A stretch of DNA of 64,000 nt from a virus. Position numbers and translations under genes: made by a program. The notes below the pieces were generated by a model, which searched no databases, was not told the DNA's origin, and was given only the letters and a program-made list of their open reading frames with translations. Shown piece after piece: positions 45,743 through 60,711 of this stretch. Positions within the stretch are counted from its first letter, which is position 1. Every line of letters begins with the position of its first letter. The stretch lies in IMG/VR virus record IMGVR_UViG_3300042197_000370. The stretch is one strand, 5' to 3'.

Positions 45743-46593
45743 TGAGAGCAACTGAATTTCTTAAGGAGTCTGAAGTTGATGAAATGGCGTTAGCCAAATA
45801 TCAACCAATGGGTGACTTTACTAAGCCAGGACCATTTAGGGGAGTAGATAAGAAATTAGTGCCTCATCCTAAAAATCAGTTGAAGGCAGAAAAGTTCTTT
45901 GAAAAAACTCCATATGATTTTAGATTATTCTTTAGCAATATATCAGGTACAGGTCGCTATAGTGAATATGGTCCTATGGATCCAAAGAACGTAGAAATAA
46001 TATTTGGTGATGCCGCTAAAGATATTATAGATGGACATGATGATGCTATTACTGTAGTATTCGTAGGTAATAAAGGTGATAGCAAAGTTATGTTAACACC
46101 ATGGATGATGGCGCATCGTTTTGGACATGCTATACAAGCAGGAGTGCGCGGTAAGAATCAATGGAGTGCTTGGACAGAAGCCGAAAATCATTTTTTCAAT
46201 GCAGTTAACAATCTATTAAATGAATATTACGGTAAGATCGGTAAGCCAGGTGGTAATTTAAAATGGGAACTTACCCCTGAATACAACGCATTATTCAATG
46301 CTATTGGAACACAGCGTAGTAGCCGTAGTAATGAAATTAGAAGACCTTACGAATTTTTGTATGAACTATTTGCACAGTATTTAGGTACTGGTAATGTCAC
46401 ACTTAAGCCTTTCCCAACTAACTTAAGTTATGGTCGTAAAGTATGGGGAAATCCCACACGTTATATGAATATCAAGCCCGAGTTCCGTGACGAAAACGAA
46501 CGAAAGAATGCTGCCGAAACACTAGCACGTGATATGGAAATGATGTTTGATGACGTACTAAGCAGTAGCGTCGGCAAGATATTCGTTATGTAA
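45742..46593 (+). CDS. Hypothetical protein with leader and zincin-like HRxxH motif
   Basis: MRATEFLKESEVDE; AHRFGHA...YELFAQY. Confidence 0.7.
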   Translation: MRATEFLKESEVDEMALAKYQPMGDFTKPGPFRGVDKKLVPHPKNQLKAEKFFEKTPYDFRLFFSNISGTGRYSEYGPMDPKNVEIIFGDAAKDIIDGHDDAITVVFVGNKGDSKVMLTPWMMAHRFGHAIQAGVRGKNQWSAWTEAENHFFNAVNNLLNEYYGKIGKPGGNLKWELTPEYNALFNAIGTQRSSRSNEIRRPYEFLYELFAQYLGTGNVTLKPFPTNLSYGRKVWGNPTRYMNIKPEFRDENERKNAAETLARDMEMMFDDVLSSSVGKIFVM

Positions 46594-47419
46594 CTTTTAA
46601 TAGTTCTTCAAACGAATACAAATTCTTCATATAGGGCGACACATCTTCTAGTACACTACTAGGCAAATCACCTTCTCGTCTAGGTCCATATGTAATATCA
46701 AACTCAACGTCATTGACCCTACGAAATAAATCTACAATTTCTTTAACACTATAACCTACACCATGTCCTAAGCATTCAACACTATTGCTAGGTTTATCAA
46801 TGGCAGTTACTAATGCTTCACAAATTTCTAATACATGTACATAGTCACGAACACATGTACCATCAACGCTTGCGTCATAGTCATTTCCGTGTATTGTAAA
46901 TGTACCGGTCTGACTAGCCTTCATTAAATTATACATTAATCCATCTGGATTAGTAGGTGGAACTACAGTACTACCAATTACATTATAAAATCTAAAAATT
47001 GTGTAATCTTTTGGATTTACCCCTGTGCAATACTCACGTACAACATCTTCTGCGGCACGTTTACTAATACCATAAGCACTAGCGCATCCTTCTGCGGCAC
47101 CAGTACTTGCAAAAATAAAGTTTTTAGTTTTTACCTTATTGATGACATTCATAGTACCATTAATATTGGTTATGTAATACATGATGGGAGTACGTTGACT
47201 CTCACCTACATTTACCTTAGCAGCCAAATGTATAACAGCATCAAACTCTTCTGCTATTTCAAACTGACGATTTATGTCTACGTTATAGAATCTATGCGCA
47301 GGAACTTGAGGTGGATTTATATCTAGACAATGTACTTCGTAATTCAGTTTATCCATTAACATTTTAACTAAATGCGAACCAATATATCCTGAACTACCGG
47401 TAACTAATATTTTTTTCAT
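46586..47419 (-). CDS. NAD-dependent epimerase (GalE-like extended SDR)
   Basis: GSSGYIG, YGISK (YxxxK), RFYNV, RDYVHV. Confidence 0.92.
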   Translation of the reverse strand: MKKILVTGSSGYIGSHLVKMLMDKLNYEVHCLDINPPQVPAHRFYNVDINRQFEIAEEFDAVIHLAAKVNVGESQRTPIMYYITNINGTMNVINKVKTKNFIFASTGAAEGCASAYGISKRAAEDVVREYCTGVNPKDYTIFRFYNVIGSTVVPPTNPDGLMYNLMKASQTGTFTIHGNDYDASVDGTCVRDYVHVLEICEALVTAIDKPSNSVECLGHGVGYSVKEIVDLFRRVNDVEFDITYGPRREGDLPSSVLEDVSPYMKNLYSFEELLKVT

Positions 47420-48141
47420 ATTTTCCTCACATCATCTTTTTTATATATATTATCCATAATTGTATCCTTCACATCCCATTCTAATTCTGTTAAATCTATG
47501 GCAGTATCTAATGTTTTATTTTTTATTAAGTCGCATATGATATTTGCTAAACGTTTATTGTTTAGTGAGTTAAGATGGCAGTCTCGCAAATCTCCGCCGC
47601 GATCTGTATTAACATTGCCGGTACGTTGATATTTTCCCTTATAAAAAATATGCTCTGCTATAGATACTTGATTTAATTTTAACAATACTGGATAACTTAC
47701 CTTAGGCATATCATAGTCTAATGGGAAACTAAAAATATTTACAAGGTACTTATTATTTTCTTGACAAATTCTATTCACATCTTTAACGATGTTGACACTT
47801 ATATAATTCAATAACTCCTCAGACATTATATCTTTTCTGATTTTATTATAAGGTTCCATTAGCGAATTACCTGTGAATCCTATTTCCCAAGCATAGTGTT
47901 CTAGTCCAAGTGGTGTTACTGGCCAACGCATACTGTTAGTATGACAAAACACAATACAATCGTATTTTTTATAACGTTTGATAAATTGTTCATATGAATA
48001 CCAATGTGATGTACCGCCCCTAGCCCACTGACCTGCTTTACCGTCGCCCATCATTTCATTTAATAATATAGGCCATGGCTTGTTCTCAGTGTAAACACCG
48101 TAATAGGCTGCAAAACTATCACCAAATATACCTATACGCAT
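47416..48141 (-). CDS. SGNH-hydrolase-like protein
   Basis: FGDSF, ARGGTS, RDCHLN. Confidence 0.65.
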   Translation of the reverse strand: MRIGIFGDSFAAYYGVYTENKPWPILLNEMMGDGKAGQWARGGTSHWYSYEQFIKRYKKYDCIVFCHTNSMRWPVTPLGLEHYAWEIGFTGNSLMEPYNKIRKDIMSEELLNYISVNIVKDVNRICQENNKYLVNIFSFPLDYDMPKVSYPVLLKLNQVSIAEHIFYKGKYQRTGNVNTDRGGDLRDCHLNSLNNKRLANIICDLIKNKTLDTAIDLTELEWDVKDTIMDNIYKKDDVRKI

Positions 48142-49479
48142 TTATAGACCTTGAAATAAGCCGTCTGCCTCTGCCGTTTCTTCTGGCTCAAATGATGGAT
48201 CTCTAGTCAACCAAGTATCATCATCAGTATAGATTACACGAAATTTATGTTTGTTGGTTAATACACTGCGAATATCATCTATGCATACGATTTTTCTATT
48301 TAAACTCTGTACATAATCTAGGTATCTCACCGTGCCAAAGTTACAAATTTGTGCAGTATTACTATTGCTTTGTTTGCCTACAAACTTATTAAAGCATTCA
48401 TTCCATTTGTGAAACACTTGGTCTTCTATGGCACGATATTTTTCTAATATTCCATTAGCATACCATGTTTTAGCATCGGGCACATTATTATATAGTTCTG
48501 TTACTTTAGAAGCCATATTCTTTTTATTAACTGTAAAGAAATGATGACTATCAAAATTATTAGTCCAACGTTGATTTTCTAATACTACTGTTGGTAATTG
48601 TATATGCTGTTCATAGAAAGCCATGCCATAACTTTCTACAATGCTAGGATTGAATGCTACTCTTGCGCTTGTGATGAAATCTACTTTCTCTTGTCCTACG
48701 ATGCTAGCACGAACATCGTATGTCGCACCAATCTTCTTTAATCGTTCTTCAAACTTCTTTACACCGTTAGGGCTAGTCATCACTTTAGCAGGAAGTTTTG
48801 TCTGTTCGATCAAATCGATGAATAGTTCAGGATTCTTACCTTCTTCCCAGCGACCAACAAACAACACGCCCTCACGTGGTTTGTGATGCTCTTCCAGTAA
48901 TACACGCTCTGTGATAGGAATAGGAAGATGCCATGCCCCGTTACTCATAGATATTTGATTGAACTTGCTTTGTGTTCCAATCCATAATGCGTTGCATTCA
49001 AGTTGTTTACGCATCATATCATTAGTAGAGTATAAGAATGGATTCTTAGTATCCTTAAATATCTGACTTTCTAAATGTGTATAGGCAATAATTTGAACAA
49101 CATCTTCAAGACCCATGGTACTAGCAACCTGCACACTCTCGTAGGTATTACAGATAAGTGCGTCATAAATGTTATGCTCCATTGCTTCAACAATAGCATT
49201 ACGGAAGTTAGCCATACGTTCATAGCAAAATGTATCACCATACATAAAGATATTGCTATGTAGTGTGTATGGCAATGATTCTAATGGTGCGATGATGTTA
49301 GCCTTCAACGACTTGACAAACTCATTATCTTTAGGTTCTTTGTCACAAATAATATCAACTTTGATATTATGTTCATCCATAAGTTCGCAAAAACTTTTTG
49401 CAAACTGTCCTATGCCACCGTGCGGGATTAATGTTTGGTAACTAACAATAAATCCTATACGTTTGTCATACGTTCTCAC
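48142..49479 (-). CDS. GT-B glycosyltransferase (GT4-like)
   Basis: HGGIG, FVGRWEEGKNP, ESYGMAFYE (Ex7E). Confidence 0.85.
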   Translation of the reverse strand: MRTYDKRIGFIVSYQTLIPHGGIGQFAKSFCELMDEHNIKVDIICDKEPKDNEFVKSLKANIIAPLESLPYTLHSNIFMYGDTFCYERMANFRNAIVEAMEHNIYDALICNTYESVQVASTMGLEDVVQIIAYTHLESQIFKDTKNPFLYSTNDMMRKQLECNALWIGTQSKFNQISMSNGAWHLPIPITERVLLEEHHKPREGVLFVGRWEEGKNPELFIDLIEQTKLPAKVMTSPNGVKKFEERLKKIGATYDVRASIVGQEKVDFITSARVAFNPSIVESYGMAFYEQHIQLPTVVLENQRWTNNFDSHHFFTVNKKNMASKVTELYNNVPDAKTWYANGILEKYRAIEDQVFHKWNECFNKFVGKQSNSNTAQICNFGTVRYLDYVQSLNRKIVCIDDIRSVLTNKHKFRVIYTDDDTWLTRDPSFEPEETAEADGLFQGL

Positions 49480-50745: not shown

Positions 50746-50937
50746 TTACCAATGATGTACTACATTTGCAATAATAAAACAACATGTTATCACATGTAGG
50801 AAAATCCAGAAAGTTTTTAGGAACAATGCGATTTTGGCTTCGTTGACTGTGAGAATAGGCACTCTAGGCCTATCCTCGTCTGTCTGTCCCATTAAGTGCC
50901 CGGTGGCCCGAGCCCAAATTTTTTCTAAACTGTTCAT
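50746..50937 (-). CDS. Small membrane protein
   Basis: IWARATGHLMG...TM. Confidence 0.7.
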   Translation of the reverse strand: MNSLEKIWARATGHLMGQTDEDRPRVPILTVNEAKIALFLKTFWIFLHVITCCFIIANVVHHW

Positions 50938-51461
50938 GCTTCGTATGTTGCAGAATTAGCATTATGCTCAAATACTTCTACAGAACGTAATTTTACACCT
51001 TGACCAGTTGGATACCTTGCTTCAAATACACGACCATCAGGGTGAGTCCAACTACGACCCTCTTTATATGCTTCAAGTATTTCGTTCATAGTCTTGTAGG
51101 CTAATTCAGCAAACTTTTCGCATCCCACTGCCTTTACTATGCGTAGGTCAATAAGCCCCATATTCTTGAAACCACCCTGCACACGATTTAGTTCTACAAA
51201 CGTTTGACGTTCAGGATCATCTTCAGCAATAATGGTAGTATGATCAAACATCCATTCACTCCATTCTTTAAATGCTTTGAGTCCACCGAAGTCCATGACC
51301 CAATTGCGGTCATCAAGTGTTTCACTTTCAAACACTAATTTGATTCCAATACTATAGCCATGTAGTAACGAACAATGGCTATGGATACTTTTCCACTGTC
51401 TAAAAACACATGAAAGTCCACGGTCGTTGCCGTAAGTTTTTGTTGATAAATATTTTGCCAT
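50934..51461 (-). CDS. queD: 6-carboxy-5,6,7,8-tetrahydropterin synthase
   Basis: HCSLLHGY, VMDFG, FDH, GCEKFA, VFEH. Confidence 0.93.
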   Translation of the reverse strand: MAKYLSTKTYGNDRGLSCVFRQWKSIHSHCSLLHGYSIGIKLVFESETLDDRNWVMDFGGLKAFKEWSEWMFDHTTIIAEDDPERQTFVELNRVQGGFKNMGLIDLRIVKAVGCEKFAELAYKTMNEILEAYKEGRSWTHPDGRVFEARYPTGQGVKLRSVEVFEHNANSATYEA

Positions 51462-51535
51462 CTCTAGTCTCCTTTACTAATGAGCAAGTTTGATGGCGGC
51501 AGAGTTTATTAATCGGGGTGACGCCAAGACCGATA
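51462..51535 (-). ncRNA. Candidate preQ1-I-like riboswitch (H-type pseudoknot) with SD-sequestering hairpin
   Basis: P1 AUCGG/CCGAU; loop UCUUGGCGUCACC; A-rich L3 UAAUAAAC; P2 UGGCG/CGCCA; CUUGCU/AGGAG hairpin; lies directly upstream of queD. Confidence 0.6.
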
Positions 51536-52222
51536 TCATTTTTCTAAAATAAATCTAATTGTTCCGTTGATATGACCTTGAATAGGAAATTCATATCCTA
51601 GTCTATCAAATGGGCAATCAAATAAAACTAACTTATAAGGTAATTTTACAATCATTTCTTTTGTAAGGTCAACTAAATTTCTTGCAGGTGGTGCTTTTGC
51701 AAGTTTAGACGTTATGTAATGAGATTCTATCATACCCGTACTTAACGTAAATAAAAATCTACCACCCGGCTTAATTATTCGCATAGCCTGAACAATATTA
51801 TTTTCCACTTCGGTTAACTTACCGAAGTGCAAACTGTTTATAGCCATGCCACAATCATACTCTTCTATATGAGCATCTGCAAACTTTTCGGAGAAATCCA
51901 TATGTAAATCTGCATGCTCACCTGATGCATATCCACCCGGTTCAAGTGATGTTATATTAGGAAACCAGCGTTTCCAAAAACATTCTCCCGCACCTACATC
52001 AATAACACTTTTAGGGTTGTTATCGTATAGCCAACTAATGTAATAGAATATCTCTTTAAAGCCTATTTTATATTCATAGTGCCCTCGAGGAGATACTTTA
52101 TTTTGTACAACTTCATCTTTGACGAATAACTCGTAATGTTCTTCAAGTTCCTTTTCTAGGTTAGGGAAATTTCTAATTTCATGATTACGATTATACTCGT
52201 TTATATTAATATTTTCTATCAT
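51536..52222 (-). CDS. Class I SAM-dependent methyltransferase
   Basis: VIDVGAG, NSLHF, IKPGGRF. Confidence 0.8.
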   Translation of the reverse strand: MIENININEYNRNHEIRNFPNLEKELEEHYELFVKDEVVQNKVSPRGHYEYKIGFKEIFYYISWLYDNNPKSVIDVGAGECFWKRWFPNITSLEPGGYASGEHADLHMDFSEKFADAHIEEYDCGMAINSLHFGKLTEVENNIVQAMRIIKPGGRFLFTLSTGMIESHYITSKLAKAPPARNLVDLTKEMIVKLPYKLVLFDCPFDRLGYEFPIQGHINGTIRFILEK

Positions 52223-52417: not shown

Positions 52418-52891
52418 TCATTGATTTAACTTATTGATAATTTGTGCTTCTGCTACACGCTTTCGCAAACTACTAGAACTAAAACTATGATCACGGCCAT
52501 TGAATACTATCTCAATACCACGATCAATACATTCTTCACGCCCCGTAAAGTCTTTCTCTGCATATTCTACACCTAGTATACGCACATCTACAGGTAGAAT
52601 TAATAGTAAGTCAATCAAGTCTTGTTCAGTTTGATAAACAACAACCTCATCTACAAAACGACATGCGCTAAGTTGAATTTGACGTTCAACGATACTTTGT
52701 ACAGGATGATTCTTTGTATCGGGTCTATCGATAGTAGGATCAGTTTGTAATCCTGCAATCAAATAATCACAATGGTTCTTTGCTTCACTAAGCATAGCAA
52801 TGTGACCTGCATGCAACAAATCAAAGGTACTAAAGGTAATACCAATTTTAAGACCTTGAGCCTTTAATTCTTTAATCTTATTGAATATCAT
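52418..52891 (-). CDS. Cytidylyltransferase (TagD/glycerol-3-phosphate CTase-like)
   Basis: TFDLLHAGH (HxGH), ER...L...VDEV, FSSSSLR. Confidence 0.9.
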   Translation of the reverse strand: MIFNKIKELKAQGLKIGITFSTFDLLHAGHIAMLSEAKNHCDYLIAGLQTDPTIDRPDTKNHPVQSIVERQIQLSACRFVDEVVVYQTEQDLIDLLLILPVDVRILGVEYAEKDFTGREECIDRGIEIVFNGRDHSFSSSSLRKRVAEAQIINKLNQ

Positions 52892-53124
52892 CTTTGTAAT
52901 GTTTTCCACATGACAGTTTGTTCATGTTCTTTTAAGAACTCCTCTTCTCCTGAAAAGGACCCACTATCTTTAAGAATAGCATCAACAAGCCATTTAATCT
53001 TATACAAGTCTTGTTTGATAGCCCATTGAGTATATCCGTCATTATAAGGACTGTGTAATTCTACACCTGCCATATAGACTTGATGATGAACACTATTATA
53101 ATCCATTGGTTTACGAAATCCCAT
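52888..53124 (-). CDS. Conserved phage hypothetical protein
   Basis: SPYNDGYTQW..KQDLY. Confidence 0.75.
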   Translation of the reverse strand: MGFRKPMDYNSVHHQVYMAGVELHSPYNDGYTQWAIKQDLYKIKWLVDAILKDSGSFSGEEEFLKEHEQTVMWKTLQR

Positions 53125-53291: not shown

Positions 53292-53452
53292 TACTTACTC
53301 CATTTATCGTCCATATAACCACATGTGCAAGTACCTACCATATTACAATCATTGTTGCACTTTGAATGTCTAGGGGTAAACCTAATCAGTAGGTACAGTA
53401 TTATGCCGATGAGAATCAACGCCATAATTTTAAAAAACAACACGACGGTCAT
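53291..53452 (-). CDS. Small TM protein with Cys-rich tail (53 aa)
   Basis: Hand translation ...LILIGIILYLLIRF...CNNDCNMVGTCTCG. Confidence 0.7.
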   Translation of the reverse strand: MTVVLFFKIMALILIGIILYLLIRFTPRHSKCNNDCNMVGTCTCGYMDDKWSK

Positions 53453-54129
53453 TTACAAGCCTGTCTTGCTATCTGATAGAATTCGTTGCGTACAGCAGGA
53501 TCATTTTTGAATCCACCACCTAGACGGCTAGTGACTGTGCTACTTCCAGTATCTTCAACACCACGTGACTTCACGCAATAATGCTGTGCATCGATCATTA
53601 CGGCAACGTCTTCTGTACCGAGAATGAACTGCAATGTGTGGAAGATTTGTTCTGTGAGTCTTTCTTGGATTTGTGGTCGCTTGCTGAAGTATTCAACGAT
53701 ACGATTGATCTTGCTGAGTCCAAGCACTCTATCCTTAGGTACATATGCAACAGTAGCGGTACCATCAATGATAACAAAGTGATGCTCACAATTACTTTGA
53801 ACATTGACATTCCTTTCAACGACCATCTCGTTATAACTCATCTTGTTATCTACAGTAGTGCATTTTGGGAATGCATCATAATCTAGACCCCAAAAGATTT
53901 CATTAACATACATCTTAGCAACACGTTTAGGTGTTTCGATAAGACTATCATCAGTTAAGTCTAGTCCTAAGGCTCTCATGATCTCAGCAAAGTTACCTTC
54001 GATGATATCAATCTGTTCCTTACGGTCTAGATTACGTTTTTTGATTGGGGTTTCAACACCTACTTTAACTAAGTGTTCGTGAACTTGGCGTCCCAATTCG
54101 GGATCGGTTTTAGTTTTGTTATATGACAT
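53449..54129 (-). CDS. folE: GTP cyclohydrolase I
   Basis: ETPKRVAKMY, SNCEHH, GLSKINR, QIQERLT, HYCVKSRG. Confidence 0.97.
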   Translation of the reverse strand: MSYNKTKTDPELGRQVHEHLVKVGVETPIKKRNLDRKEQIDIIEGNFAEIMRALGLDLTDDSLIETPKRVAKMYVNEIFWGLDYDAFPKCTTVDNKMSYNEMVVERNVNVQSNCEHHFVIIDGTATVAYVPKDRVLGLSKINRIVEYFSKRPQIQERLTEQIFHTLQFILGTEDVAVMIDAQHYCVKSRGVEDTGSSTVTSRLGGGFKNDPAVRNEFYQIARQACK

Positions 54130-54644: not shown

Positions 54645-55399
54645 AATTTTTTCCTTATTAAAAACGGTATAATAACTTGTTCAGTATATATCTTGTGTTG
54701 TGCAGATCCAGGATGAGGATCGTTTTCTACTGGAAAGGGTAAGCCTGAATATTTAATAATCCATGATTGACAATCTTCAGCATCTATCCAATTATCAAAA
54801 TCAATTAAATCATATAGATATTTTACATCAGGATGATCGACTACATCAATGTGTTGGTCTGTATTTTTTGGATACCTTGTTTTGATATTTTTATTAAAAA
54901 CATCACTGAAGTACTCTGTCATAAAATACGGGACTCCGTGACTCTTTAAAAACCACTGTACGTTTAATATGTGTTCAATGGTTGATATAACTGATCCTAC
55001 ATGGTCGTAAAAATTATTATAAAAACTACTTGACAATGGATCGTCCCAATGGTCATTTACCAAGTAATAATTTGAATCGCTTACGATTCTAAGAGGATTA
55101 CTATCATTATCTCTATAACCCATTTTATGAAATTTGCCAGGATCACGGTCAAAGTAGTATTCATCTCTATGACACCCGGACCACATAATACCAACTAATA
55201 TATCTTTTGGATTGTAGTTCTTTAATGTTTCTAGTGTGTTAAAAATGGTTTTCTTGCTTATAATTCCATTGCTACCTGCACCATGGCCCAAATATAAAGC
55301 CTCAATACCCATAGCCCTACTTAAATGATAAGGCCATGTTTTGTGACCACTCGGAAATTGTGTGAAACTACATCCAGCAGATATAAGCAATTTTGTCAT
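54614..55399 (-). CDS. SGNH-hydrolase-like protein
   Basis: AGCSFT, GHGAGSN, DPHPG. Confidence 0.65.
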
Positions 55400-56424
55400 T
55401 TAGCAAATATATTATTGTATTGTTTATTAACTCGTATAAATGTTGTACACTTACTTAACTGTTTTAAAGTAGATGCACCAACATAACTGCAAGTACTACG
55501 TATTCCACCTAACAAATCTAATACTGTATTGTTTATAGGTCCGCGATACGGAACCTCAACAGTTCTGCCCTCGCTACTACGATAGTTTGCTACCCCACCG
55601 TGATGCTTATTCATTGCAGTATCACTACTCATACCATAGAACGTTACCTTGCCATTTTCAACATGACCGCCACCTTCGTCATGACCGGCTAACATGCCAC
55701 CAAGCATCACGAAGTCAGCACCCGCACCGAAAGCCTTACTAACATCACCAGGACAAGTACATCCACCATCAGCAATAATATGACCGCCAAGACCGTGAGC
55801 GGCATCGGCGCATTCAATAATTGCACTAAGTTGAGGGTACCCCACACCAGTTTGAATGCGAGTAGTACAAACGCTCCCAGGCCCAATCCCCACTTTAACA
55901 ATGTCGGCTCCACGTAAAATTAACTCCTGTGTCATATCTGCGGTAACAACGTTACCTGCAATAATTGTATGCGTAGGATATTTATCACGAACCTTACTTA
56001 CAAAGTCACAAAAATGTTCGCTGTATCCATTAGCAATATCAATACAAATGAAATGAATTTCAGGATATACGTTTAACGTTTGTTGCAGGTTAGTCCAGTC
56101 TTTATCACTAGTTCCTGTACTAACTGCAAAGTAGTTGCCACCAATATCTTCTACAGTGGTATCCATGTATTCCATGTATTCCATACCGATATTTTTAACT
56201 AGGCACGTAAACATTTTATGCCGGTATAATGCATGTGCCATTTCTAGTGTACCAACACCGTCCATGTTAGCAGCCATGATGGGAACACCGGTCCATTCAA
56301 ATCCGCTGTGTTTGAACTTGAATGTTCGTTCTAGGTTTACTTCTTTTCTGCTAGAAATTGTACTGCGCTTAGGGCGAATCAATACGTCACTAAAATCTAA
56401 CTTAACTTCGTTTTCGATTCTCAT
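55396..56424 (-). CDS. guaC: GMP reductase
   Basis: [55 protein letters not shown]. Confidence 0.95.
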
Positions 56425-59165: not shown

Positions 59166-59763
59166 TATGCAACCCATACCACATTTGATGAATTTCGTTT
59201 GCGTAGTCATACAAATCTTCTAACTCAAAAAAATTTATTATTTTATAATAAAGCGATTTGTCTAATTTTGGAGTATACAGTGTTTTTCCTTCTACTATTA
59301 ATAATTCTTCATTTGGATTACATACAAAATCTGTTATACCTTTATTCTCATCTTCACAACGTTTAATGAAATCTTTAGGTGTAAACGTGTTTAGGGTAGG
59401 ATTAAATCTAACGTAGTGTTTTAAACAGTCTATTGGATCTAGTACTGAAGCCAATATTTTATGAGGACCAACTATATTTTTTGTTGCTACTTCCATCTTA
59501 TGAGATATTGTGATAATATGATCTAATTGACCACGATATCTCCATTCATACGCAATCCAATTAGAATGTGTCCGCTCTTTAGAGTACACATTTTCTTCTA
59601 TAAATTTTACTTTATCTTTACTATTCCATGGGAATGCTCTTTTGAATCCCATAAAACTATTTGCATTTAATAAACCTAAACTATTGTACTTTTGCGAAAG
59701 TAGTATTAACCAACGATAATGATTAGCAAAACCCCCTACTGGAGCACATATACTATGACGCAT
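59158..59763 (-). CDS. GG..N..RW family protein, tandem copy 1
   Basis: MRHSICAPVGGFANHYRWL; ATG 59763. Confidence 0.7.
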   Translation of the reverse strand: MRHSICAPVGGFANHYRWLILLSQKYNSLGLLNANSFMGFKRAFPWNSKDKVKFIEENVYSKERTHSNWIAYEWRYRGQLDHIITISHKMEVATKNIVGPHKILASVLDPIDCLKHYVRFNPTLNTFTPKDFIKRCEDENKGITDFVCNPNEELLIVEGKTLYTPKLDKSLYYKIINFFELEDLYDYANEIHQMWYGLHNA

Positions 59764-60532
59764 TTTTTCTAATAATATCTTCTTCGATACAATTAATACC
59801 GTATTGAATTTCAATGACTTTCAAAGGTTCGTCAGTATCATTACATAACTGATGCCATTGATCTTTTGAAATGTGAAGATATTTATGTTCATCAAATTGA
59901 CCTAACTCATCAAATTCAGTTTTGACAGGATCGATAGTATTGACGGTTGCAGTACCGTGAGAAACAAACCAAAACTCACTACGCTCATTATGTTTTTGCA
60001 TACTTAGTTTTTGTCCAGGATTAACAGTTAATTCTTTAACTTTAACACTAGGACCATCTTGGTGAAGAACCCTATAATATCCCCAGTCACGTATAGTTTT
60101 AGGTGACTTCCATTCTTCTAATATCCAACTTGAACTGTTAGCCTTGTCTCCCCCACCTACACCAAACTTAAACGTTATATCCTTAACTACTGTTTCGGGA
60201 ATGTTCGTGACATTTCTATCGCCGCCGTTTGCAAATATAATATTTGCATAGGGGTAACTAATTTTTAATTCTTCTAATAATGATATTGCACTACCATCAC
60301 TATCGTCAAACGTTAATGTAGCATCTACATCTTTCAATGATCCCACTATCATTCTGCGTTCTTCAATGGGCATAAAGGCTCTACCTTTTTTACGGGTAAG
60401 CCATTCATCGCTATTAACGCCTACAATTAAACGATCACCTAATTGCCGTGCGGCGCTCAAATATTTTATGTGTCCACTATGTATTGGGTCAAAACCACCA
60501 GTACATACTACTATGTTTATTTGTTTTTCCAT
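59753..60532 (-). CDS. Bifunctional cytidylyltransferase (RfaE-like) / mannose-6-phosphate-isomerase-type cupin
   Basis: TGGFDPIHSGH; WGYYRVL...VNPGQKLSMQKH..RSEFW...H.L.N...EIQYG. Confidence 0.9.
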   Translation of the reverse strand: MEKQINIVVCTGGFDPIHSGHIKYLSAARQLGDRLIVGVNSDEWLTRKKGRAFMPIEERRMIVGSLKDVDATLTFDDSDGSAISLLEELKISYPYANIIFANGGDRNVTNIPETVVKDITFKFGVGGGDKANSSSWILEEWKSPKTIRDWGYYRVLHQDGPSVKVKELTVNPGQKLSMQKHNERSEFWFVSHGTATVNTIDPVKTEFDELGQFDEHKYLHISKDQWHQLCNDTDEPLKVIEIQYGINCIEEDIIRKNAS

Positions 60533-60711
60533 TAATTCCTTAATCCAACATAAAATAAAAAAAGTGCAAGTACTGCGAATATTGCATATGTCAACCAAGC
60601 GGGTGCGGGAGGCTTCTTAAGATGCGGGCACCTGCCTTGTTGAAAATCGCAATAGTACGGAAGCAACTCATCATTCATTTGCTTCCCGCAGTACTTGCAC
60701 CTCTCACTCAT
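60532..60711 (-). CDS. Small Zn-finger/TM protein (59 aa)
   Basis: Hand translation MSERCKYCGKQMNDELLPYYCDFQQGRCPHLKKPPAPAWLTYAIFAVLALFLFYVGLRN; coupled at both ends. Confidence 0.65.
   Translation of the reverse strand: MSERCKYCGKQMNDELLPYYCDFQQGRCPHLKKPPAPAWLTYAIFAVLALFLFYVGLRN
60564..60700. repeat. Perfect 14-bp inverted repeat closing a three-way-junction structure
   Basis: GTGCAAGTACTGCG (60564-60577) / CGCAGTACTTGCAC (60687-60700). Confidence 0.85.

Follow-up and report, generated by a model that had tools for sequence, protein, structure and literature searches.

The element analyzed here is the leader of a queD-like gene on the minus strand of a lake-phage DNA stretch of 64,000 nucleotides (nt) (IMG/VR record IMGVR_UViG_3300042197_000370; "the window" denotes this whole stretch). 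The leader is a 74-nt spacer (51535..51462, minus strand) between the stop codon of an upstream open reading frame (ORF) and the ATG of the queD-like gene (51461-51459). Comparative sequence analysis indicates that this leader is a genuine structured element, widespread among phages (it is kept in hundreds of uncultured ones) and confined to them, which most likely represents a new, phage-only riboswitch class with a preQ1-I-like fold and ON logic. The leader is probably a cis-acting translational ON switch built on an H-type pseudoknot of about 45 nt that would be stabilized by a ligand. In the mechanism proposed here, the 3' strand of the variable pseudoknot helix P2b can alternatively pair with the start codon or the Shine-Dalgarno (SD) sequence and close the ribosome-binding site (RBS) in a hairpin; a small planar ligand with a guanine-like face would bind at the junction of helices P1 and P2a against an invariant cytidine; and binding would stabilize P2, withhold the anti-RBS strand and turn QueD translation on. 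The ligand is probably an intermediate or product of the phage route from GTP via dihydroneopterin triphosphate (H2NTP) and carboxytetrahydropterin (CPH4) to carboxydeazaguanine (CDG) and 7-deazaguanine.

Riboswitch classes are known from bacteria, and phages mostly carry copies of bacterial classes. The queD-leader motif is abundant in viral contigs; neither isolate bacterial genomes nor Rfam contain it. The genes that it precedes belong to a single enzyme family of the 7-deazaguanine/pterin route, by which phages modify their DNA against host restriction. A literature search found no paper describing a queD-leader motif or a natural preQ1-type ON switch. New here are the P2a extension with its large G-C subfamily, a reciprocal test against preQ1-I, the quantified logic of the expression platform and a caveat on the detection of DpdA.

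Structure, conservation and distribution of the leader

Direct reading of the window finds P1 (AUCGG/CCGAU), the loop (UCUUGGCGUCACC), an A-rich L3 and P2 (UGGCG/CGCCA) exactly where a first-pass annotation of this DNA had placed them. That annotation overlooked the pairing of "CA" in L2 with "UG" in L3 and the invariant tail of L3. The family-consensus pattern has a single match in the window (51499-51531), and 0 of 100 shuffles match. The covariance model of the family (R1), the training set of which includes the window sequence, also finds a sole copy there, with a score of 39.4 bits, at the low end of the 38-63 bit family range. The element and the gene that it precedes are laid out as follows.

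51457..51534, minus strand: whole element, pseudoknot aptamer plus expression platform including the start-codon helix (R1 match at 51489-51536, 39.4 bits; pattern match)
51530..51534, minus strand: P1 5' strand, AUCGG, pairs with 51512-51516
51527..51529, minus strand: L1, UCU (family N-C-U); C and U near-invariant, first nucleotide A, U or C
51522..51526, minus strand: P2b 5' strand, UGGCG, pairs with 51494-51498
51519..51521, minus strand: U51521 of the U.C mismatch, then the P2a 5' strand C51520 and A51519 (C51520-G51500, A51519-U51501)
51517..51518, minus strand: L2 proper, C51518 (Y in the family) and the invariant C51517 adjoining P1 (family counts)
51512..51516, minus strand: P1 3' strand, CCGAU (covariation)
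51502..51511, minus strand: L3, UAAUAAACUC (family N-W-A-N-A-N-A-Y-U-C); alternate A's invariant or near-invariant, YUC invariant
51499..51501, minus strand: P2a 3' strand U51501 and G51500, then C51499, the mismatch partner of U51521 (covariation, scans for P2a forms)
51494..51498, minus strand: P2b 3' strand, CGCCA (covariation)
51492..51497, minus strand: sequestor 5' strand, GCCAUC, with a 4-nt overlap with the P2b 3' strand; pairs with 51457-51462
51482..51488, minus strand: 5' side of a weakly supported inner helix, CU.GCUC (minimum free energy (MFE) fold; conserved, without clean covariation)
51469..51474, minus strand: SD sequence, AAGGAG (direct reading)
51457..51462, minus strand: sequestor 3' strand, GAUGGC, including the start codon 51459-51461 (direct reading, pairing probabilities)
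50934..51461, minus strand: regulated gene, phage-type QueD of the PTPS family, 175 amino acids (aa), with an H-C-x3-H-G-Y motif (PF01242, E 2.4e-13; phrog_2389, 3.4e-34)

Related loci were gathered via QueD protein similarity in IMG/VR. The motif is present in 75 of the 80 QueD-anchored leaders (the best 80 of 269 relatives), with obvious compensatory changes, so that collecting queD leaders from relatives, the check proposed in the first-pass annotation, yields both conservation and covariation of P1 and P2. In the first alignment (A1, 42 distinct leaders), P1 is 100% paired, with covariation at three of the five pairs, and P2 is 84% paired. The second (A2, 117 distinct aptamers) has P1 98.8% and P2 79% paired, with double changes at all seven P2 pairs; 0 of 500 shuffles reach its score, and slid registers pair at 36-51% compared with 87.7%. 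Given that the letters that appear invariant in A2 are partly fixed by the search pattern, three further protein-anchored sets were fetched via divergent QueD-like proteins (315, at least 595 and 40 relatives, respectively), and 200 of these loci were examined. R1, which was built without the further sets, identifies the motif at E<0.01 in 173 of the 200 loci, always on the coding strand and shortly before the ORF; where it is missed, the locus is truncated at a contig edge, or queD lies directly behind a QueE-like gene without a leader. In the third alignment (A3), which consists of 120 distinct aptamers from protein-anchored loci only, pairing of P1 reaches 99.2% and three of its five pairs covary (AU/UA, GC/CG/UA and CG/AU/UA); double changes are found at all seven P2b pairs and both P2a pairs. 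Again, 0 of 500 shuffles reach the observed score, and slid pairing amounts to 31-46% compared with 84.5%.

Some 15 unpaired positions vary little or not at all (N-C-U, Y-C, A.A.A and YUC). The L2 cytidine is C in 118 of 119 distinct protein-anchored aptamers; the first L1 nucleotide varies (A in 57, U in 35, C in 27), and the YUCUGC tail of L3 is invariant. The family layout is thus a P2b of 4-7 bp, an L2 of 2 nt (Y plus the invariant C) and an L3 of 10 nt. Three loci with one aptamer sequence (L479-L481, aptamer 335-384) have U in place of the L2 cytidine (UCACU), which could be a natural specificity variant or an error. Another variant (L483:329-372 and L478), with an L3 about 3-4 nt shorter and a 4-bp P1 (UAGG/CCUA), keeps UCUGC and the P2/sequestor arrangement and scores only 15.7 bits with R1.

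P2 is two pairs longer than first described, with the "CA" of L2 pairing with the "UG" of L3 after a conserved U.C mismatch. In A3, the first P2a pair is C-G in 109 aptamers and U-A in two, and the second is A-U in 109 and G-C in two; the nine "other" rows result from a one-nucleotide insertion in L2 shifted by MAFFT. Pattern scans of viral contigs find the A-U form in at least 120 contigs and the compensated G-C form (UCG with UCCGC) also in at least 120; among the G-C matches listed, 117 have at least four of the five P1 pairs, and nearly all of these are followed by QueD-like ORFs. The U-A form (UUA with UCUAC) gives 13 matches, 10 of them true motifs, and the uncompensated A.C form (UCA with UCCGC) four matches, of which one is a true motif. 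The abundance of the compensated forms and the near absence of the A.C form indicate that P2 consists of the variable P2b, the U.C mismatch and P2a. In P2a and the mismatch, conservation extends beyond the pairing to the sequence itself. A role of L1 as a triplex partner of P2a finds no support, L1 being the same in the A-U and G-C forms.

A gene-blind scan with the RNA pattern matches at least 120 viral contigs, and all 80 pattern-matched contigs examined encode a QueD/PTPS-family ORF 0-40 nt downstream. The proteins encoded there are only 26-89% identical to the window QueD, and the genes served by the motif fall into five or more protein subfamilies. Searches with four of the downstream QueD-like protein types give more than 1,200 relatives among IMG/VR contigs; the motif is present at most of the loci examined. 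At one locus (L067:2496-3525), the motif precedes a canonical HGH-type QueD gene followed by a tandem phage HGY-type gene, that is, two PTPS paralogs with one leader.

The strict tie to the QueD/PTPS family is what autoregulation would predict, and protein-bound pseudoknots are known in phage mRNA leaders. The pseudoknot of the T4 gene 32 mRNA leader is recognized by the protein that the gene encodes and is not known to have a conserved junction pocket. Like the queD leader, it is a pseudoknot at the 5' end of a phage mRNA involved in translational control of the downstream gene. The queD leader could accordingly be a protein operator of this kind, read by QueD itself or by another phage translational regulator, but this appears improbable. 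Conservation of the RNA exceeds that of any neighboring protein and, by far, that of the downstream proteins (down to 26% identity across five or more subfamilies, the HGH type included), which are too diverse relative to the RNA to resemble the T4 case. The neighborhoods of the related loci contain no constant gene other than QueD, and the invariant unpaired nucleotides cluster at the junction of a very small RNA, as is typical of small-ligand pockets.

With respect to phage restriction, the pattern scan of one genome for each of 185,579 prokaryote species gives 68 matches, about the chance expectation. Only seven of these are true motifs (P1 plus QueD), all on contigs of metagenome-assembled genomes, plausibly binned phage DNA, and none in an isolate. 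A blastn search with three family leaders detects no similar leader in a 50,697-record collection of cultured phages. QueD homologs with 43-51% identity are encoded by the cultured phages Iggy, Mendera, RHEph and immuto; in immuto, Iggy and Mendera there is essentially no spacer before queD. In a group of loci (L397, L399-L403, L409, L410, L437 and L495-L498; upstream of position 401), the QueD-like gene starts a few nt after an ORF, probably QueE-like, that ends in ...HIWGNTMGT. The motif is absent there, and with queD so close behind the preceding ORF, this subset of phages appears to use operon coupling in place of the leader.

Expression platform of the leader

The geometry of the platform, as read from its pairing potential, is ON switch wiring: the P2b 3' strand doubles as the anti-RBS strand, so that formation of P2 opens the RBS. 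In the window, GCCAUC is perfectly complementary to GAUGGC over the start codon, and the mutual exclusion of P2 and the start-codon helix noted in the first-pass annotation holds across the family. In A1, the sequestor column pair 53-90 is CG in 32 leaders and UA in eight. Duplexes between the 11 nt that follow L3 and the region from -15 to +8 have a median of -8.0 kcal/mol over 249 distinct leaders, compared with -3.9 kcal/mol for shuffled 11-mers (Wilcoxon p 3e-39, a value inflated by relatedness). In 95% of the best duplexes, at least two nucleotides of the P2b 3' strand are used. The duplex targets AUG in 128 leaders, SD in 109, both in one and neither in 11. The possible ON geometry suggested from the single sequence is borne out by this pairing.

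At least four platform designs keep the same logic with differing sequences and targets. The GYCRUC/GAUGGC design is the one found in the window; in GCCAUUGUU/AACAAUGGC, AUG is in the stem and SD in the loop; in CCUAUG/CAUAGG, SD is masked; and relatives also have AAGUCAUC/GAUGACUU and ACUCC/GGAGU. An additional masking of the SD by a CUUGCU/AGGAG hairpin had been proposed for the window. The inner helix is indeed conserved (CU/AG plus GCUC/GAG.C), but it touches only three SD nucleotides and lacks clean covariation.

In the free ensemble of the window leader, the pairing probability is 0.99 for AUG and 0.62 for SD; with the P2 strands blocked, the values are 0.72 and 0.06, respectively. The sequestor hairpin (-11.4 kcal/mol) is favored over P2, which as a duplex has -6.6 to -7.7 kcal/mol, so that P2 would be transient without extra stabilization. 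Such energetics would also suit a ligand-independent element, namely, a kinetic timer in which the 5' pseudoknot, the first part to fold as the RNA is made, would hold the RBS open on young transcripts only, a thermosensor or a translational enhancer. So would the position of the aptamer at the extreme 5' end of the mRNA wherever promoters are recognizable: a near-consensus sigma-70 promoter (TTGACA-N16-18-TATAAT) ends 6-9 nt before P1 in 23 of 128 distinct loci and in none of the controls shifted by 30 nt, which makes the aptamer the very 5' end of the mRNA at these loci. We nevertheless give a ligand-independent role little credence, given that a mere competing helix has no need of some 15 invariant or near-invariant unpaired positions, nor of a P2a and a U.C mismatch maintained in sequence beyond their pairing.

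Two other functions were considered and rejected. There is no U tract, contrary to the expectation for a terminator. A readthrough or frameshift pseudoknot serving the upstream ORF does not fit either, as this ORF is near-unique to the window and the other loci have promoters or intergenic DNA in its place. Contigs from RNA libraries match queD and the leader exactly as far as 51512-51517, and none of them includes the upstream ORF. As these are contigs that may stem from carried-over DNA, they are not counted as evidence for the 5' end or for expression.

Relation to preQ1-I and candidate ligands

The preQ1-I aptamer is an H-type pseudoknot with a P1 of 5-6 bp, the minor groove of which accommodates an A-rich L3. 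The ligand preQ1 pairs with a conserved cytidine of L2, its other (minor-groove) edge is read by an adenine of L3 next to P2 and a uridine of L1, both conserved, and SD is sequestered in P2 (PMC10622847). The queD leader shares several of these features with preQ1-I RNAs (types I-III, e.g., B. subtilis queC, T. tengcongensis and E. coli yhhQ). Both are very small H-type pseudoknots with a 5-bp P1 closed by two G-C pairs; in the queD leader, P1 and P2 both covary. The invariant C51517 lies directly 5' of the P1 3' strand, in the position of the specificity cytidine, and may have the same role in ligand recognition. The L3 sequence is A-rich, with invariant alternate A's, and the element precedes a gene of the 7-deazaguanine pathway.

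The differences are no less distinct. In the queD leader, P2 has 7-10 layers (P2b, U.C and P2a) rather than 3-4 pairs, L2 is only 2 nt long, the 10-nt L3 ends in the invariant YUC followed by P2a rather than in a ligand-reading A, and L1 does not begin with a conserved U. SD is never part of P2 and follows its 3' strand at a distance of 30-45 nt, the wiring is ON rather than OFF, and the motif occurs only in uncultured phages, not in bacterial isolates. To our knowledge, all known preQ1 switches follow a logic opposite to the ON wiring of the queD leader.

The first-pass annotation described the leader as a candidate preQ1-I-like riboswitch variant. The term variant is fair, and the preQ1-I-like topology is conserved, but membership in preQ1-I is not supported. 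The Rfam model of preQ1-I (RF00522; gathering threshold 39 bits, positive controls 33-55 bits) has no match at E<=10 in the window leader (searched as 1.5 kb and as 121 nt) or in 20 diverse members of the family, and the conserved L1 uridine and L3 adenine have no conserved counterparts. In the nearest record, the only RF00522 match is an unrelated 9.2-bit site. A search with all 4227 families of Rfam 15, including preQ1-II (RF01054) and preQ1-III (RF02680), likewise gives no leader match at E<=10. In the reciprocal test, R1, which contains no preQ1-I sequence, was run with filters off against 30 Bacilli loci with genuine preQ1-I aptamers. Exactly on these aptamers, which occupy less than 1% of the sequence searched, fall 23 of the 49 matches at E<=10, spread over 21 of the 30 loci. 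These preQ1-I sequences are not mutually independent. The matches are all local, covering P1 and the first seven nt of L3, with 7.9-9.6 bits and E 0.2-0.8; the shared likeness is AGRGG...C-CCYCU-WUAAA. The likeness of R1 to preQ1-I is real but limited, and it may reflect either common descent or convergence on the same minimal fold. Given the lack of an Rfam match and the local, weak R1 matches, the element is filed as preQ1-I-like rather than as a member.

The shared topology, the two G-C pairs of P1, the invariant C, the A-rich L3, the placement of nearly half of the R1 matches on genuine preQ1-I aptamers and the que-pathway gene context would all suit a true divergent preQ1-I subtype that binds preQ1 or preQ0 at the canonical alpha-site and is rewired to an ON platform. 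Such a subtype is nonetheless unlikely, considering the absence of RF00522 matches, the purely local and low-scoring R1 matches, the variable first L1 nucleotide, the YUC-P2a end of L3 in place of the ligand-reading adenine, and the long P2 that never includes SD.

In working logic, the queD leader is comparable to the add adenine riboswitch of Vibrio vulnificus, a three-way junction the ligand of which is the substrate of the regulated enzyme. In both, folding of the aptamer withdraws a strand that pairs with SD/AUG and so opens the RBS. The likeness is confined to this logic, the add aptamer having an unrelated fold and a known ligand.

With respect to the pathway, each of the four relatives at least 97% complete carries FolE together with a strong QueE-like gene, so that these phages can make H2NTP, CPH4 and CDG. 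For DpdA, searches with the Pfam TGT family, immuto DpdA3 and Iggy DpdA give no match in the window or in the four relatives at least 97% complete, but these probes miss each other's positive controls. In particular, the annotated DpdA of Flavobacterium phage immuto (DpdA3; MW353175.1, 12879-13673) is missed by Pfam TGT PF01702 and by Iggy DpdA, so that the negative searches say little and do not refute the first-pass suggestion that guanine released by its DpdA could be sensed; the definition of DpdA3 and DpdA4 needed HHpred (bioRxiv 10.1101/2023.04.13.536721). For QueC, there are only weak partial matches and none in the 100%-complete record, and PHROG scans of 20 window ORFs detect neither DpdA nor QueC. 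Some phages that lack QueC are reported to carry 7-deazaguanine in their DNA (bioRxiv 10.1101/2023.04.13.536721). In the 357-kb record of a 100%-complete jumbo phage (G002), the QueE-like PHROG cluster has roughly nine additional weak matches, all radical-SAM, within 20 kb (168994-188457), which suggests an unusual radical-SAM gene array.

The invariant junction C suggests a ligand with a guanine-like Watson-Crick face, a property that 7-deazaguanines, guanine and pterins have alike. An ON switch would fit a substrate or feed-forward signal, such as H2NTP or another upstream or parallel intermediate, more naturally than end-product feedback. A more specific proposal, which we advance tentatively as a possibility short of even odds, is that the leader is the first virus-confined riboswitch class, in which a distinct preQ1-I-shaped pocket (L2 C, L3 YUC, L1 CU and a P2a ceiling) would sense a pathway metabolite and turn QueD on; the candidates are H2NTP (the FolE product), CPH4, CDG, 7-deazaguanine and preQ0.

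Several points weigh against reading the leader as a ligand-responsive ON switch. The case for ligand binding and regulation is comparative throughout, and the same anatomy would also suit control by a protein or by kinetics alone. With the end product as ligand, an ON switch would be unusual for a biosynthetic gene. A2 was derived partly from the RNA pattern, which fixes "invariant" letters by construction, and only the protein-anchored sets are unbiased; furthermore, the sequences are related, so that the shuffle statistics and the Wilcoxon p value overstate independence. The single-sequence fold of the window leader is unremarkable (MFE -16.6 kcal/mol, z = -0.12; 88 of 200 shuffles fold as well). 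Finally, no sigma-70 promoter is found in front of the window element, and the translated ORF next to it ends only 1 nt before P1, so that ribosomes arriving from upstream could disturb this helix.

Should a ligand be found, the queD leader would reveal how a DNA-modification pathway is timed or metered in phages, provide a second minimal pseudoknot pocket to set beside preQ1-I, whether through convergence or deep homology, and offer synthetic biology a compact natural ON switch of about 80 nt. A virus-confined class, if real, would imply feed-forward control of 7-deazaguanine (or pterin) synthesis by phages.

Gene neighborhood in the window

The window QueD is 51% identical to QueD of Pseudomonas phage Iggy, with which it shares the invariant H-C-x3-H-G-Y motif that replaces HGH, and scores only 35 bits against the bacterial QueD equivalog TIGR03367 (cut-off 89). 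Iggy is described as a dPreQ0-modifying phage (PMC10484667). Upstream of the leader are the following features.

51536-52222, minus strand: upstream ORF, 228 aa, no Pfam family; weak PHROG match to tRNA methyltransferase, E 4e-4
51536-51538, minus strand: stop codon (TGA) of this ORF, 1 nt before P1, marking the 5' border of the element

A homolog of the 228-aa ORF is present in only one of 126 related loci; relatives have a cytidylyltransferase-like gene before the motif instead, and the ORF appears to have been inserted precisely at the aptamer's 5' edge.

On the same strand as queD, the window encodes a QueE-like radical-SAM protein (phrog_2076, 3.2e-52), FolE (NF006824, 326 bits) and a full-length GMP reductase (GuaC equivalog NF003470, 557 bits compared with the cut-off of 397) nearby. 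The GMP reductase gene adjoins that of FolE (55396-56424 and 53449-54129, respectively, both on the minus strand). Together, the GMP reductase, FolE, QueD and QueE-like genes point to a broader rerouting of the guanine-nucleotide pool. Sugar-nucleotide genes surround the queD and queE genes (46586-49479, 52418-52909 and 59753-60598, minus strand); the set comprises an NAD epimerase, a GT1 glycosyltransferase, an RfaE-II-like nucleotidyltransferase and a nucleotidyltransferase fused to a cupin of the mannose-6-phosphate isomerase type. Immediately downstream, the start of a 63-aa ORF without a family match (50746-50937, minus strand) overlaps the queD stop codon (ATGA). This ORF is kept downstream of queD in 33-44 related loci and may be translationally coupled to queD, and hence also be under the control of the switch.

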